DNA of 64,000 bases from the sequence record MK373786.1. The stretch is one strand, 5' to 3'. Shown here piece after piece: positions 4,093-9,416 of the stretch. How positions within the stretch are numbered: position 1 is the first letter of the stretch; the number at the start of each line of letters is the position of its first letter. This stretch comes from Escherichia phage vB_EcoM_R5505. The position numbers and the translations under genes are program-made. The notes beneath the pieces are model-generated. The model did no database searches and was not told the DNA's origin. It saw only the letters and a program-made list of their open reading frames with translations.

Positions 4093-4210
4093 TTTTTAAA
4101 AAGTTTTAGGGAATTCTAGGGTCAGGAGGGGCAATTAAAAGATAGGATAATATATTATAAAGGGTAGAAACTAAATGATGCCTAGAGAGGCCCAGAAAGG
4201 CCTAGATACC

Positions 4211-4238
4211 AAAAAGTCCCAACCTTTCGGTTGGGGCT
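4211..4238 (-). terminator. rho-independent terminator after the 157-aa gene
   Basis: Minus-strand hairpin GCCCCAACC-GAAA-GGTTGGGAC followed by UUUUU; sits just 3' of the stop at 4246. Confidence 0.6.
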
Positions 4239-4245
4239 AAGAATG

Positions 4246-4719
4246 TTATTTGATTTGTTTAGCAGACCAAATGCGGTCTTTAATAATTTTTTGGATGTCT
4301 TCAACATACTCAAGAGAGTGAGCATGTGGGTTATCTTTGAAACTATAAGCACGAGCTAACTTTTGACCTTCAGTTTTGATTACTAAAAGCTCTTTAAGGA
4401 TAGCTTCATATTTGGAGATAATTCCTTTAACAATATTTTTTTCTTGTGTAGCTTTAGGATCTGCTTTAGGAGCAGGTTTACCTGAAGCCTTTGCAAAAGC
4501 AGCGCCAGTAGCAACTAAACTTTTCCAGGCCATACTAACTGCATTCCCTGTAAATCCTTCGGCTTTCATATCACGAGCAAATTGGAATCGTGATTCATCG
4601 GAAGCATCTTTATAGGAATATTTACCCGCGGCAATGGCTGCTTTTGCGACAGCTTGAATTTCGGTGCTAGATGCTTCATTTAACACCGCTTCATTTAAAA
4701 ATTGAGCATATGATTTCAT
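4246..4719 (-). CDS. Ala/Lys-rich protein with internal-protein-like N-terminal capsid-targeting motif
   Basis: 157-aa ORF, ATG start; N-terminus MKSYAQFLNEAVLNEA resembles the T4 internal-protein targeting sequence MKTYQEFIAEA and carries two L-x-E sites (prohead protease motif). Confidence 0.7.
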   Translation of the reverse strand: MKSYAQFLNEAVLNEASSTEIQAVAKAAIAAGKYSYKDASDESRFQFARDMKAEGFTGNAVSMAWKSLVATGAAFAKASGKPAPKADPKATQEKNIVKGIISKYEAILKELLVIKTEGQKLARAYSFKDNPHAHSLEYVEDIQKIIKDRIWSAKQIK

Positions 4720-4765
4720 CTTATTTCCTGTTTTAATTCGTGGTTTTAATATACTTATTTATACC

Positions 4766-4792
4766 AAAAAGCCCCAACCTTTCGGTCGGGGC
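4766..4792 (-). terminator. rho-independent terminator at the 3' end of the tRNA/stable-RNA transcription unit
   Basis: Minus-strand hairpin GCCCCGACC-GAAA-GGTTGGGGC followed by UUUUU; near-identical to the terminator at 4211-4238. Confidence 0.6.
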
Positions 4793-4844
4793 TAAGCCTT
4801 GCGGCAACCTTGTCGGGGTTCCACCTGCTAAGGCAAGTGTTTGT

Positions 4845-5473: not shown

Positions 5474-5549
5474 TGGTCGAGGCAGTAGGGATCGAACCTA
5501 CGACCTAGGACTTAGAAGGTCCTTGCTCTTCCTTCTGAGCTATGCCCCG
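5474..5549 (-). tRNA. tRNA-Arg (anticodon UCU)
   Basis: Manual cloverleaf: acceptor CGGGGCA/TGCCTCG, D-stem GCTC/GAGC, anticodon stem AGGAC/GTCCT with loop CTTCTAA, T-arm GTAGG-TTCGATC-CCTAC, encoded CCA. Confidence 0.85.
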
Positions 5550-5553
5550 TAAT

Positions 5554-5629
5554 TGGGGTGACCGATGGGAGTCGAACCCATGACTACGAGAATCACAATC
5601 TCGAGTTCTACCAACTGAACTACGGCCAC
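5554..5629 (-). tRNA. tRNA-His (anticodon GUG)
   Basis: Cloverleaf: acceptor GTGGCCG/CGGTCAC, D-stem GTTC/GAAC, anticodon stem CGAGA/TCTCG loop TTGTGAT, T-arm ATGGG-TTCGACT-CCCAT, discriminator C, CCA encoded; no encoded G-1. Confidence 0.75.
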
Positions 5630-5743
5630 ATTAATACCTACTCCAACAATCAAGATGTCTTCACACGAAATTAAGAGAAGAGTGATCAGTTCAACCCCTA
5701 TAATCGCGTCAAGTAGATATTAATGTGACAGTTGTCACAAATT

Positions 5744-5818
5744 TGGCGGACGTGATAGGATTCGAACCTATAACCAATCGCTTAACAGGCGATCGCTCTG
5801 CCATTGAGCTACACATCC
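5744..5818 (-). tRNA. tRNA-Asn (anticodon GUU)
   Basis: Cloverleaf: acceptor GGATGTG/CACGTCC, D-stem GCTC/GAGC, anticodon stem ATCGC/GCGAT loop CTGTTAA, T-arm ATAGG-TTCGAAT-CCTAT, CCA encoded. Confidence 0.75.
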
Positions 5819-5822
5819 AAAT

Positions 5823-5909
5823 TGGTGGGGAGTGGTGGAGTCGAACCACCCGAGTCGCAATGACAATGAATTTACAGTCCACACCGCTACCTCTACGGGA
5901 TAACTCCCC
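5823..5909 (-). tRNA. tRNA-Tyr (anticodon GUA), long variable arm
   Basis: Perfect acceptor GGGGAGT/ACTCCCC, T-arm GGTGG-TTCGACT-CCACC, anticodon loop CTGTAAA, ~15-nt variable arm; D-arm pairing imperfect. Confidence 0.6.
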
Positions 5910-5918
5910 AAATTAATT

Positions 5919-5993
5919 TGGTGGCCCTGGGTGGAATTGAACCACCATCTGGCGATTATGAGTCGCTTGCTTGAACCTTCCAGCTACAGGGCC
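5919..5993 (-). tRNA. tRNA with CAU anticodon (Ile2 lysidine type as in T4, or Met)
   Basis: Acceptor GGCCCTG/CAGGGCC, D-stem GCTG/AAGC, anticodon loop CTCATAA, T-arm GGTGG-TTCAATT-CCACC, CCA encoded. Confidence 0.7.
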
Positions 5994-5994
5994 T

Positions 5995-6070
5995 TGGTGC
6001 TGATTGACGGAATCGAACCGCCGACCTTCTCATTACAAGTGAGTTGCTCTACCTACTGAGCTAAATCAGC
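5995..6070 (-). tRNA. tRNA-Thr (anticodon UGU)
   Basis: Acceptor GCTGATT/AATCAGC, D-stem GCTC/GAGC, anticodon loop CTTGTAA, T-arm GGCGG-TTCGATT-CCGTC, CCA encoded. Confidence 0.85.
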
Positions 6071-6075
6071 AAAAC

Positions 6076-6165
6076 TGGCGGAGGCGATAGGATTTGAACC
6101 TATGAGTCGCCGGAGCGACTGCCGGTTTTCAAGACCGGTGCATTAAACCACTCTGCCACGCCTCC
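6076..6165 (-). tRNA. tRNA-Ser (anticodon UGA), long variable arm
   Basis: Acceptor GGAGGCG/CGCCTCC, anticodon stem ACCGG/CCGGT loop CTTGAAA, long variable stem-loop, T-arm ATAGG-TTCAAAT-CCTAT, CCA encoded. Confidence 0.85.
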
Positions 6166-6167
6166 AG

Positions 6168-6241
6168 TCTCCATACAAGGATTTGAACCTTGGACCTCCT
6201 GATCCCAAATCAGGCGCTCTACCAAACTGAGCTACACGGAG
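6168..6241 (-). tRNA. tRNA-Pro (anticodon UGG), CCA not encoded; 2-nt spacer to tRNA-Ser
   Basis: Acceptor CTCCGTG/TATGGAG, D-stem GCTC/GAGC, anticodon stem CCTGA/TCAGG loop TTTGGGA, T-arm CAAGG-TTCAAAT-CCTTG; Pro-Ser dimeric arrangement as in T4. Confidence 0.85.
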
Positions 6242-6251
6242 TAAATTAAAT

Positions 6252-6325
<74 letters not shown>

Positions 6326-6330
6326 AAATT

Positions 6331-6417
6331 TGGTGCGAGAAGTGGGACTCGAACCCACAAGGAAATCATTCCGCAGCATTTTAAGTGCTGTGCCTTTACC
6401 AATTTGACCATTCTCGC
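6331..6417 (-). tRNA. tRNA-Leu (anticodon UAA), long variable arm
   Basis: Acceptor GCGAGAA/TTCTCGC, anticodon stem CAGCA/TGCTG loop CTTAAAA, long variable arm, T-arm GTGGG-TTCGAGT-CCCAC, CCA encoded. Confidence 0.85.
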
Positions 6418-6418
6418 G

Positions 6419-6490
6419 CTGGGAATAAAGGACTCGAACCTTTGCATCTAGCAGTCAAAGTGCTATGCCTTACCAACTTGGCTAATTCCC
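6419..6490 (-). tRNA. tRNA-Gln (anticodon UUG), CCA not encoded; 1-nt spacer to tRNA-Leu
   Basis: Acceptor TGGGAAT/ATTCCCA, D-stem GCC/GGC, anticodon stem TAGCA/TGCTA loop CTTTGAC, T-arm AAAGG-TTCGAGT-CCTTT; Gln-Leu dimeric arrangement as in T4. Confidence 0.85.
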
Positions 6491-6577
6491 AATTATTAAC
6501 AAAGGCTCTCAAACAAGAACCCTTGATGATAGAGGGTATTAATCAGTGCGGTATGAGTTAATAATAACAAATAATTC

Positions 6578-7093
6578 TTAAAGCAAATTAAACATTTTAA
6601 CGGTCGGCAAAACAATTTCTTCTTCTATATAAGAGTATTTAACACTCTCAACTACACGCAAAAAATCATAATCATAATACTCAGAAGCATTACCTAAAAT
6701 ATTAATAAGTCCTTCAAGCACTTTATTACCATTCACAAAGAATAAGTCAAATACGCGTTCTTCGTCTTCTTCGGATTTATTACCAAGGTCAACTTCTATA
6801 TCAAAGACCTTTTTAATGAATTCTGGATAAAGTTGTTCTGAGAACAGTCCTTCAACCAAGTATTCATAAATAAAAAGCGATTGCTCGCTGAACAAGCCAT
6901 TACCACAATAACGTTCAGCTTTAGTACTAGAATGTCTACTTTTAAACTTCTTTAAAAGATATTGAAATTGTAAGATTTCATGCTCTTCTACGCCAAACAG
7001 TGTTTTAGTTTTATAGTTGTCACCATCATTTTCCCAGGTAGTGACATCAATTACGTAACCCTGTGGAATTGTAGTACCTAAACAAATATTCAT
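6578..7093 (-). CDS. hypothetical protein, last gene of a four-gene early operon in the tRNA-ipI variable region
   Basis: 171-aa ORF, ATG start, 4-nt overlap with upstream gene; acidic; no motif recognised. Confidence 0.65.
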   Translation of the reverse strand: MNICLGTTIPQGYVIDVTTWENDGDNYKTKTLFGVEEHEILQFQYLLKKFKSRHSSTKAERYCGNGLFSEQSLFIYEYLVEGLFSEQLYPEFIKKVFDIEVDLGNKSEEDEERVFDLFFVNGNKVLEGLINILGNASEYYDYDFLRVVESVKYSYIEEEIVLPTVKMFNLL

Positions 7094-7383
7094 TTGCTCA
7101 CCATATTAATGTAAGTATATTCAATACATTCAAGACCCAAAGGATTCTTGAAAATATCATATTCAAGAGGACCTTTTTCCGTTTCAATAAAGAAATCAAA
7201 ATTTACTGTATTAAATTTACGGTCTTCCTTCACTAATTTAACCTGAGAAGATGAACGGTCAATGTAAACCTTTTCAACTTCAAAACATGTTAAAATGCCA
7301 TAATCATCAATCAAGGCTTTAGCTGCTTCTTGATCATATTTATATCCATTTTCAATGGATGATACTTTAGCATAAAGAATCAT
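7090..7383 (-). CDS. hypothetical protein (variable-region operon)
   Basis: 97-aa ORF, ATG start, 3-nt gap to upstream gene. Confidence 0.6.
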   Translation of the reverse strand: MILYAKVSSIENGYKYDQEAAKALIDDYGILTCFEVEKVYIDRSSSQVKLVKEDRKFNTVNFDFFIETEKGPLEYDIFKNPLGLECIEYTYINMVSK

Positions 7384-7385
7384 TA

Positions 7386-7796
7386 TCAGCCTCTATCAAC
7401 GATAGCATGAGTATGGGCATTTACGATTTGCCACCAGTCGAAACGATTGGAACCATAATCTGGTTTATTTTCATTTTCTTTAATGATATCACGCAGTTTA
7501 TCTTCTGTTTCAGCATACGCAATTAAATCATCATATCCGCCACAAGGATAATAATTATCACCTGCGAATAAAAGAAAATTTACCTTAGATGGATTTACGT
7601 AATAATGGTCTTTAGGATATTTAGTTCCTCTCCAATCAGTTACTTCAACATAACGGTAAGAAAATCCATTTTTACTTTCAATCCAACTCCACGCTTCAAA
7701 AGGAGTATTAAAAACTTTATCAGGTATTAAATTACCTTCAAAATGAGAAGGATTTGCATAATCCCCGGCATAAACATAATATTCGTTAATACTCAT
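7386..7796 (-). CDS. hypothetical protein, Tyr/Trp-rich (variable-region operon)
   Basis: 136-aa ORF, ATG start immediately after upstream stop; no motif recognised. Confidence 0.65.
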   Translation of the reverse strand: MSINEYYVYAGDYANPSHFEGNLIPDKVFNTPFEAWSWIESKNGFSYRYVEVTDWRGTKYPKDHYYVNPSKVNFLLFAGDNYYPCGGYDDLIAYAETEDKLRDIIKENENKPDYGSNRFDWWQIVNAHTHAIVDRG

Positions 7797-7982
7797 TTAT
7801 TCACCTTTAGAAATTTTATCCATAACAATAGCAATTAAACCAATTAAAAATGCTACTACAAGTGAAAACACATTTTCTGCTGTAGTCAATAATCCACATA
7901 TAAATCCAACAAACATTGAAAAACTAAAAGCGGAAGCAGAAATTGCAATAGCAACATTTCGAATTAATTCACAACGTTTCAT
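7797..7982 (-). CDS. small hydrophobic membrane protein (two predicted TM helices), first gene of operon
   Basis: 61-aa ORF, ATG start with SD GGAG (rc of 7991-7994); sequence ...AIAISASAFSFSMFVGFICGLL...LVVAFLIGLIAIVM... Confidence 0.55.
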   Translation of the reverse strand: MKRCELIRNVAIAISASAFSFSMFVGFICGLLTTAENVFSLVVAFLIGLIAIVMDKISKGE

Positions 7983-8000
7983 TTTATTCTCCTCAGTAGT

Positions 8001-8040
8001 AGATAGGGTAATAGTATCACTACCCTATCTAAAAGTAAAC
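8001..8040 (-). promoter_or_regulatory. early promoter cassette with -10 embedded in a 10-bp inverted repeat
   Basis: Minus strand: GTTTAC-N18-TACTAT; inverted repeat AGATAGGGTA/TACCCTATCT (8001-8010, 8021-8030) brackets the -10; shares 22-mer GATAGGGTAATAGTATCACTAC with 8302-8323. Confidence 0.5.
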
Positions 8041-8274
8041 TTATTTTTTACGAAAAATTGATTTATATTTATCAGCCCATTTCTCGATGACTTTTTCTGG
8101 TCCATAGATAACAAAATAATCACCAAACTCTTCACCACCGAGTTGACCGAAATTATCTAATGCATCACGAAGAACTCCATGAGGCATTTCGCCCATTTTA
8201 TCTTTCTTACCAATGTAAATAAACTCAACTTTTACATCAGCAGCTTCAGCAATAAATTCTTGATACGTTTTCAT
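8041..8274 (-). CDS. internal-protein-like small protein with canonical capsid targeting sequence
   Basis: ORF track start 8292 is GTG; ATG at 8274 with SD GGAGAATAAAATG gives 77 aa beginning MKTYQEFIAEA (matches T4 IPIII/IPII targeting motif, I-x-E cleavage site). Confidence 0.75.
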   Translation of the reverse strand: MKTYQEFIAEAADVKVEFIYIGKKDKMGEMPHGVLRDALDNFGQLGGEEFGDYFVIYGPEKVIEKWADKYKSIFRKK

Positions 8275-8300
8275 TTTATTCTCCAATTTCACATTTGTTT

Positions 8301-8354
8301 TGATAGGGTAATAGTATCACTACTAAAACCCCGTGTAAACAACTTTGTGAAATT
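8301..8354 (-). promoter_or_regulatory. early promoter cassette upstream of the internal-protein-like gene
   Basis: Minus strand: AATTTCACAAAGTTGTTTAC-N18-TACTAT; 20-mer GTAAACAACTTTGTGAAATT repeated at 8702-8721. Confidence 0.5.
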
Positions 8355-8359
8355 GTTTA

Positions 8360-8647
8360 TTACAAAAGATTTTTAGCAATAATCTTGAGATGTGCTGCAG
8401 AAATGTGTTTAGCTTTAAACAACGCAGTTTCTTCGGCAGGAGAGATAACGATTGTAGCACCATCCTTTTTAGCAGACCACCCATCACCTAGGTAAACAGT
8501 ACCTTTGATTTCTTCGCCATCAACCAGACTAATCATTGGTTTACCTTCTCGTCCTTTATTTGCTTTAATAACTTCAGAAGTAAGAGTAGCTTCGGTAATG
8601 GTAGAAACCGGGGTAGTTGTAGAAGTAAATTCTTTAAATGTTTTCAT
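8360..8647 (-). CDS. ipI: internal protein I (IPI), injected anti-restriction protein
   Basis: 95-aa ORF MKTFKEFTSTTTPVSTITEATLTSEVIKANKGREGKPMISLVDGEEIKG... recognised as T4 IPI; adjacent to 57B as in T4. Confidence 0.9.
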   Translation of the reverse strand: MKTFKEFTSTTTPVSTITEATLTSEVIKANKGREGKPMISLVDGEEIKGTVYLGDGWSAKKDGATIVISPAEETALFKAKHISAAHLKIIAKNLL

Positions 8648-8668
8648 TTTATTTTCCTAATTAATTTT

Positions 8669-8719
8669 GATGAGATAATAGTATCACTACCTCATCAGTA
8701 TGTAAACAACTTTGTGAAA

Positions 8720-8721
<2 letters not shown>
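8669..8721 (-). promoter_or_regulatory. early promoter for ipI
   Basis: Minus strand: ATTTCACAAAGTTGTTTACA-N17-TACTAT ~25 nt upstream of ipI ATG; partial inverted repeat TGATGAG/CTCATCA around the -10. Confidence 0.5.

Positions 8722-9416
<695 letters not shown>

Follow-up and report, generated by a model that had tools for sequence, protein, structure and literature searches.

The genes closest to those considered here are trna.4, trna.3 and trna.2 of bacteriophage T4 (NP_049748, NP_049747 and NP_049746, respectively; open reading frames ORF2-4 of the T4 tRNA-region record X03016), and RB32ORF135c of phage RB32, which the RB32 record annotates as similar to RB69ORF151c and 44RRORF127c. We compared with them a unit of four genes on the minus strand, at 6578-8040, of a 64,000-nucleotide stretch of Escherichia phage vB_EcoM_R5505 (record MK373786.1), the whole of which is called the window below. 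The T4 genes trna.2 and trna.3 are expressed early at both the RNA and the protein level, and trna.4 is early at the RNA level (PMC9697503, supplementary tables). In a 2026 study of DRT1, a defence reverse transcriptase, just two T4 proteins were enriched with the active enzyme compared with a reverse-transcriptase-dead control, namely Trna.2 and Inh (PMC13275509). A search of the full-text literature for trna.2, trna.3 and trna.4 and their accession numbers returned only the SegB paper and the DRT1 paper and preprint; the names 'trna.1' and 'trna.2' in the SegB paper denote different ORFs of T2L.

Small genes in the plastic regions of T4-type phages can be accompanied by early-promoter stem-loop cassettes (PeSLs), which are combined promoter and terminator elements mediating small-gene shuffling; the PST/T4 consensus is TTTACW-N17-TAYWAT with the stem AGNA-loop-TCNT, and promoter and terminator activity in vivo was demonstrated for the RB49 PeSLs only (Arbiol et al. 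2010, PMC2839356; Comeau et al. 2014, PMC4122927).

Results

Identity and arrangement of the four genes

The four genes are the coding leader of a T4-type tRNA operon, an arrangement long annotated in T4; their identity, their conservation, the architecture of the operon and its promoter motifs were observed directly. Positions 6400-8400 were 99.9% identical at the DNA level to Escherichia phage vB_EcoM_KAW1E185, and 856 phage records matched at least part of this stretch; as judged from sequence, the window belongs to Tequatrovirus. An earlier note, made from the letters of the window, had placed here four tightly coupled minus-strand ORFs, which it took to be undescribed; the coordinates and lengths that it gave agreed with ours. 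In the order of transcription the genes are:

7982-7797, minus strand: trna.4, first gene of the unit, 61 amino acids (aa)
7796-7386, minus strand: trna.3, second gene, 136 aa
7383-7090, minus strand: trna.2, third gene, 97 aa
7093-6578, minus strand: the 171-aa gene, fourth gene, RB32ORF135c / RB69ORF151c family (PHROG 2290)

The coupling was as tight as had been supposed: the ATG of trna.3 abuts the TAA of trna.4 with no gap, a gap of 2 nt separates trna.3 from trna.2, and trna.2 and the 171-aa gene overlap in ATGA. Each of the four starts had a Shine-Dalgarno-like sequence 5-8 nt upstream. All four ORFs matched a PHROG family (E values of 6e-35 to 8e-69) and were recovered by tblastn in 583-803 phage records; because of these matches, and because of the early classification of the T4 genes, the ORFs should be regarded as real genes and not chance frames. 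They matched, gene for gene, the annotations of RB32, KAW1E185 and T4, three of them corresponding to the long-known trna.4, trna.3 and trna.2 of T4 and the fourth to RB32ORF135c. All were thus already known, and the suggestion of undescribed genes was mistaken.

The likeness to the T4 trna.2-trna.4 set extends to the position between the ip (internal protein) gene(s) and tRNA-Gln, the strand, and the presence of the early promoter PE1 with its stem-loop; Trna.4 and Trna.3 are identical to their T4 counterparts and Trna.2 is 96.7% identical over residues 1-91. Unlike T4, the window has a full-length Trna.2 C-terminus, a fourth gene, and an extra ip gene upstream. Early expression has been established in T4, and for R5505 an early timing of these genes would follow from that precedent.

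Transcription signals and extent of the operon

The signals in and around the unit, and the tRNA genes below it, are:

8000-8040, minus strand: PeSL cassette, the equivalent of T4 early promoter PE1, with promoter hexamers and an overlapping hairpin
7344-7337, minus strand: late-promoter motif TATAAATA, within trna.2
6561-6587, minus strand: MotA-type middle promoter, the equivalent of T4 PM2, with a MotA box and a -10 hexamer
5474-6491, minus strand: tRNA cluster, 11 tRNA genes by ARAGORN

The early-promoter cassette that the earlier note had seen at 8001-8040 was confirmed, and is one of three PeSL copies. Its hexamers are TTTACT (-35, 8039-8034) and TACTAT (-10, 8016-8011) with a spacer of N17, and TG at 8019-8018 lies one base ahead of the -10 hexamer; the promoter at 8039-8011 conforms to the published PST/T4 PeSL consensus. 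A 14-bp hairpin at 8031-8000 (-18.5 kcal/mol, z = -4.1) overlaps the promoter. Direct-repeat copies of the cassette occur at 8002-8040, 8302-8340 and 8669-8707, where they precede trna.4, an extra ip gene and ipI, one each; the stems differ in sequence among the copies, and a hairpin can form in all three (-18.5, -14.7 and -14.8 kcal/mol; z = -4.1 to -2.9). The 40-mer of the cassette was matched in none of 100 shuffled versions of the window. The promoter region could be aligned with that of T4, whose record X03016 has PE1 and a stem-loop, labelled 'potential IpI terminator', at the corresponding position, and in the RB32 record Ip7 and Ip9 are described as surrounded by direct repeats of 43 bp. 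We therefore class the element at 8000-8040, from its motifs, as a PeSL cassette. It shares with the PeSL cassettes of T4-type phages a strong early promoter of the sigma-70 type, a stem-loop that covers the -10 hexamer and the spacer ahead of it, a start codon with its Shine-Dalgarno sequence downstream, and repetition around small genes in a plastic region; the difference is that PeSLs here bracket only the ip genes individually, whereas the four genes have one PeSL in common and are not mobile one by one.

Downstream, the stop codon of the 171-aa gene is overlapped by the MotA box TTTGCTTTA (6587-6579), which is followed at the expected spacing by the -10 hexamer TATTAT (6566-6561), in agreement with the criteria used for a MotA promoter, i.e., a box with a TGCTT core centred near -30 together with a -10 hexamer TAnnnT. 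Between the 171-aa stop codon and tRNA-Gln all aligned positions but one were identical to T4; PM2 is annotated in X03016, and the stretch with the MotA box and TATTAT is identical to T4. The same record lists a potential late promoter, PL2, within the homologous ORF4, a correspondence with the motif in trna.2 that was drawn by gene and not by aligned position.

Between 8000 and tRNA-Gln (6491) we found no strong terminator, only two weak overlapping hits in the 171-aa gene, and the number of terminator-like hits in the region was not above chance (6 found, compared with 3.8 +/- 2.2 expected from shuffled sequence). Because no strong terminator precedes the tRNA cluster, and because of the promoter annotation of T4 in X03016, we read the four genes as an operon leader: the unit, which the earlier note took to be a self-contained operon, probably does not end at 6578 but runs on, with the tRNAs as the distal part of the same transcription unit. 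Weak hairpins with a T-run were seen at 6876-6897 on the minus strand, in the middle of the 171-aa gene, and were no stronger than hits in shuffled sequence; they might attenuate read-through into the tRNAs.

The tRNA cluster of the window has His, Asn, Tyr and Met tRNAs in addition to the T4 set, and segB is absent. Rfam at its gathering score recovered 10 of the 11 tRNAs, missing tRNA-Tyr (5823-5909). KAW1E185 has a homing-endonuclease gene (1698-2348 of locus L002) where the window has tRNA-Pro (6167-6241), and RB68 carries a truncated segB-like gene in the same tRNA cluster.

Conservation and gene combinations

The conservation figures given here are counts of matching records, not presence or absence scored genome by genome. 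The denominator was core gene 1, found in 1636 records, 503 of them at 90% identity or more, which corresponds roughly to the genus. Trna.4 was found in 790 phage records (505 at 95% identity or more, 428 at 99% or more), Trna.2 in 803 (516 at 90% or more, 469 at 95% or more), and Trna.3 in 767, of which just 127 were at 80% or more. The 171-aa protein gave 583 records, 107 of them at 90% identity or more, 142 at 80-90% and 330 below 60%. IPI was found in 291 records, compared with the 1636 for gene 1.

At genus-level identity the record counts of trna.4, trna.3 and trna.2 are thus close to that of a core gene, and on these counts the three are not strain-specific, as had been claimed for the unit: Trna.4 at 95% or more and Trna.2 at 90% or more reach the level of gene 1 at 90% or more. 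Conservation of all four genes throughout the T4-like phages, the outcome that would have told most plainly against an accessory character, was nearly the case at genus level for these three and was not the case for the 171-aa gene. Patchiness of the strain-specific kind was a property only of the 171-aa gene and ipI, not of the unit. The true plasticity of the interval lies elsewhere: the ip genes flanked by PeSLs vary, the 171-aa gene may be present or absent, and Trna.3 varies in its N-terminal domain.

The four genes occur in several combinations. Dhakavirus-type loci have all four, or all except trna.2; T4-like loci of the Klebsiella/Enterobacter type (L017-L019, L022, L023) have only trna.4 and the 171-aa gene; and those of the Aeromonas type (L021, L029, L031) have only the 171-aa gene. 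Because the distributions are separable, in T4 as well as in the Klebsiella/Enterobacter-type and Aeromonas-type loci, the four genes are a gene array and not an obligate system, and the proposal that they form one module was not borne out. T4 is without the 171-aa gene, and its junction keeps the last ~20 nt of that gene, including the MotA box, as a remnant fused to a shortened trna.2 with a different C-terminus. The order trna.4, trna.3, trna.2, 171-aa gene, tRNAs was also found in a Mosigvirus, and several Tequatrovirus genomes have the T4-type arrangement without the 171-aa gene. From these three observations the four-gene arrangement looks ancestral, and T4, like many of its relatives, apparently lost the 171-aa gene through a deletion of ~0.5 kb.

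The individual proteins

The earlier note recognized no motif in any of the four proteins, and our searches bore this out. Pfam gave nothing significant for the four proteins, nor for 103 members of the 171-aa family, and NCBIfam nothing significant for the proteins of the unit; the PHROG families of all four are functionally unannotated; profile and sequence searches of the PDB gave no match; and a fold search of BFVD returned uncharacterised phage proteins only. No sequence or fold homology to a characterised anti-defence inhibitor, sponge or enzyme was found for any protein of the unit, with structure models covering Trna.3 and the 171-aa protein. The three soluble proteins are all acidic (pI 4.5-4.9).

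Trna.4 is 100% identical in protein sequence to T4 Trna.4 and matches PHROG 1692 (E = 6e-35). Its hydropathy profile has two hydrophobic segments (approximately residues 10-33 and 38-55) flanked by charged termini, consistent with the two-helix membrane protein that had been noted, and the protein is predicted to form a helical hairpin in the inner membrane.

Trna.3, likewise 100% identical to its T4 counterpart, is an acidic protein and is rich in aromatic residues, as had been noted (26 Y+W+F); it is modelled as two alpha/beta domains. In Tequatrovirus genomes that match the window at 99-100% identity in 57B and Trna.4, Trna.3 shows no more than 28-46% identity over residues 1-72, but 84-88% over residues 73-136. 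The N-terminal domain has at least three alleles (the window compared with loci L090-L093), which marks it as a narrowly bounded hotspot of replacement or diversification. A wider search of IMG/VR for relatives of Trna.3 found T4-like contigs only. Trna.2, 96.7% identical to T4 Trna.2 over residues 1-91 with a differing C-terminus, is acidic and belongs to PHROG 2023. Homologues of Trna.3 and Trna.2 carry the precomputed Pfam accessions PF26894 and PF27001, two entries outside the Pfam set that was searched.

The 171-aa protein, acidic (pI 4.5) as described by the earlier note, matches PHROG 2290 over residues 1-170 (E = 8.2e-69), lies at the same position as in RB32, and is a member of the RB32ORF135c / RB69ORF151c / 44RRORF127c family with no material difference. 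There is no Pfam model for this PHROG family, which is large: 1021 representatives of 50%-identity clusters were found at E<=1e-3 and 525 at E<=1e-10, and its members are stand-alone proteins, 130-190 aa in length. Two residues, E21 and D23, are invariant, within a WENDGD motif at a predicted hairpin turn, and G12, W20, N22, D25, G34, F50, G64, N65, R146 and V147 are nearly so; the protein of the window carries the family signature, i.e., the GY...T[TS]WEND[GA]D hairpin, GN, and RV.E. An AlphaFold2 model from a 103-sequence alignment (pLDDT 93.9, pTM 0.87) predicted a beta-hairpin with WENDGD at its turn, five helices and a C-terminal strand, and had no meaningful match among solved structures. 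A 45-residue query of the hairpin and first helix returned only the beta-hairpin of GFP (FKDDGNYKT), which we rejected as similarity of turn type and not homology.

Matches to the 171-aa protein reach phages of Klebsiella, Aeromonas and Enterobacter as well as jumbo phages, with a weak match in one cyanophage. Among 185,579 bacterial and archaeal species (one genome each) the only homologue was on a single metagenome-assembled contig, and the family appears to be restricted to phages. Outside the T4-like synteny no recurrent neighbour was found besides the PHROG 9564/10375 family: in certain uncultivated phages a gene of this family, for an acidic protein of ~160 aa, lies closely downstream of the 171-aa homologue (L062 5414-5896, L066 1842-2324 and L087 5671-6177; the gap is a few bases in L062 and L066). 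That this neighbour could be a paralogue, with its superficially similar FNDGE / YTPYFNDG[DE] motif, was considered and rejected (hhalign probability 0.7%).

A functional link between the 171-aa family and tRNAs was also considered, as 39 of 80 loci had co-oriented tRNAs within 5 kb, and was rejected against a control family (26% versus 26% outside the T4-like phages, p = 1.0); since this unrelated family shows an equal rate, the proximity to tRNAs is not specific. For two unrelated families of small ORFs of large phages (IMG/VR loci L111-L190 and L010-L089) about a quarter of the loci had tRNAs within 5 kb, nearly always on the same strand. Small accessory genes seem to be found quite generally around islands of tRNA genes, and arguments from guilt by association should be treated with caution.

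Neighbouring genes

Upstream of the unit, beyond the extra ip gene, the order is ipI, 57B, 57A and gene 1. The two ip genes are:

8274-8041, minus strand: extra internal-protein gene, 77 aa, PHROG 8111, with PeSL copies 8002-8040 and 8302-8340 on either side
8647-8360, minus strand: ipI, preceded by the PeSL copy 8669-8707

The extra ip gene, between ipI and trna.4, is absent from T4; its product has an IPI-like N-terminus (MKTYQEFIAEA), and the matching stretch is annotated as Ip6 in phage JK1. RB32 has Ip7, Ip9 and Ip5 in place of the ip genes of the window. The upstream region 8041-8707 is the truly variable part of the interval, and the extra ip gene has the PeSL repeats on both sides that would be expected of a shuffled cassette. 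IPI*, the product of ipI, is cited as countering a host exclusion system, GmrSD, and T4 57B is the anti-CBASS phosphodiesterase Acb1; the RefSeq label of 57B (8720-9175), 'RNA ligase', looks outdated. T4 IPI* and 57B resemble the proteins of the unit: they are small and non-essential, are made early or injected, and have their genes in the same early region; they differ in that the four proteins have no sequence or fold similarity to either.

Elsewhere in the window, a 157-aa gene (ORF 4246-4719, PHROG 2280) is bracketed by copies of a GC-rich, terminator-like hairpin at 4206-4241 and 4761-4796, which are 36 nt long and 94% identical. The RB32 record describes the same gene as 'flanked by 34 bp imperfect direct repeat'. 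To judge from this, the 157-aa gene may be a further mobile cassette, joined by linkers of another type.

Discussion

We propose that the unit is a tRNA-operon leader encoding four independent early proteins, whose likeliest class of function is host interaction or defence; we consider this reading probable, with a good deal of room left for others. The early sigma-70 promoter in the PeSL cassette (PE1) would fire soon after infection and give one polycistronic mRNA for trna.4, trna.3, trna.2 and the 171-aa gene, the cistrons being translationally coupled; transcription would run on into the tRNA genes, as no strong terminator lies in between, and the middle (MotA-type) and late promoter motifs inside the unit may act as further promoters. 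The products would be separate non-structural early proteins and not one machine. Trna.4 would insert into the inner membrane as a helical hairpin; in Trna.3 the conserved C-terminal domain would serve as a scaffold, and the rapidly evolving N-terminal domain would recognise a partner that varies; Trna.2 may contact the host DRT1 defence complex, directly or indirectly; and in the 171-aa protein, an acidic alpha/beta protein, the invariant E-N-D-G-D hairpin tip could be a site for binding a metal, a ligand or a target.

The functions of all the proteins of the unit are what we infer here, and host interaction or defence would be the most likely class. It is favoured because of the enrichment of Trna.2 with DRT1, the variability of the Trna.3 N-terminal domain, and the counter-defence genes ipI and 57B close by. 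To this extent the suggestion of a host-takeover or anti-defence function in the earlier note survives as the likeliest class; its picture of a new, strain-specific and single module does not. Several points weigh against our proposal. The authors of the DRT1 study did not pursue the pulldown, and T4 is still sensitive to DRT1 (PMC13275509). The Pfam, NCBIfam, PHROGs, PDB and fold searches were uninformative, and functional evidence was found for none of the four proteins. Trna.4 and Trna.2 are near-universal and highly identical in the genus, which fits a conserved takeover role at least as well as an arms race. Finally, we infer the read-through into the tRNA genes from the missing strong terminator and the T4 annotation. 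In a more ambitious version of the proposal, the 171-aa protein would stand for a novel type of phage effector, with enzymatic activity or with affinity for a metal or small molecule, directed at some conserved process of the host or at an immune signal; Trna.3 would be a modular counter-defence protein or trigger, with an exchangeable N-terminal domain that follows variable host factors; and Trna.2 would be a direct partner of DRT1. This version is speculative and we think it doubtful.

The main rival is a conserved takeover role, in which the proteins are general host-takeover factors unrelated to immunity that act on a conserved target in the membrane, transcription, translation or metabolism. 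The 428 records with Trna.4 at 99% identity or more and the 469 with Trna.2 at 95% or more, together with early expression in T4, are as such a role would have it, and the invariant residues of the 171-aa family across more than 1000 clusters are those expected of an enzyme or ligand binder with a fixed target; however, the hypervariable N-terminus of Trna.3, the repeated loss of the 171-aa gene and the association of Trna.2 with DRT1 fit conflict-type evolution better, and homology to a known takeover factor was not found. We regard this alternative as unlikely overall, yet as one that carries real weight. Less probable is a service to the co-transcribed phage tRNAs (their maturation, their protection, or an action against host anticodon nucleases), performed by the proteins of the unit and especially by the 171-aa protein. 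The common transcription unit with 11 tRNAs speaks for it, as do the positions of the 171-aa family, which lies within 5 kb of co-oriented tRNAs in 11 of 11 T4-like lineages and in 12 of 37 other phage lineages, with one homologue (L082) between two tRNAs and another, in jumbo phage Muenster, 142 nt upstream of tRNA-Leu. Yet a control PHROG 9564-like family did as well (21 of 80 loci, compared with 15 of 58 171-aa loci outside the T4-like phages; odds ratio 0.98, p = 1.0); RB32, which has the 171-aa gene, and T4, which has not, carry the same eight tRNAs; the acidity of the three soluble proteins (pI 4.5-4.9) is unfavourable to direct binding of RNA; and the homology and fold searches found no RNA-enzyme fold.

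That the four genes form a strain-specific, undescribed anti-defence or takeover module of four components acting as a unit would account for the tight translational coupling, the single early promoter, the adjoining counter-defence genes and the want of any product with a known function. The distribution data largely refute it, and we now rate it very improbable: three of the genes are annotated T4 genes whose record counts, at the identity level of the genus, come close to that of a core gene, the combinations differ among phages, and co-variation in presence and absence was not seen. The notion that the ORFs are non-functional and that only an RNA leader matters is refuted for practical purposes by conservation at the protein level across genera, down to 27-45% identity, by the detection of T4 Trna.2 and Trna.3 as early proteins in proteomics (PMC9697503) and of Trna.2 by mass spectrometry (PMC13275509), and by confident fold predictions.

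With independent early proteins in a tRNA-operon leader as the preferred reading, the interval mostly corrects the record: it is a conserved T4 tRNA-operon leader, and known PeSL cassettes account for the plasticity around it. These are early-made proteins, conserved in a large share of the sequenced T-even phages. The leads that they offer are Trna.2 with DRT1, the allele-swapping N-terminal domain of Trna.3, and the large 171-aa family with its unclassified fold.

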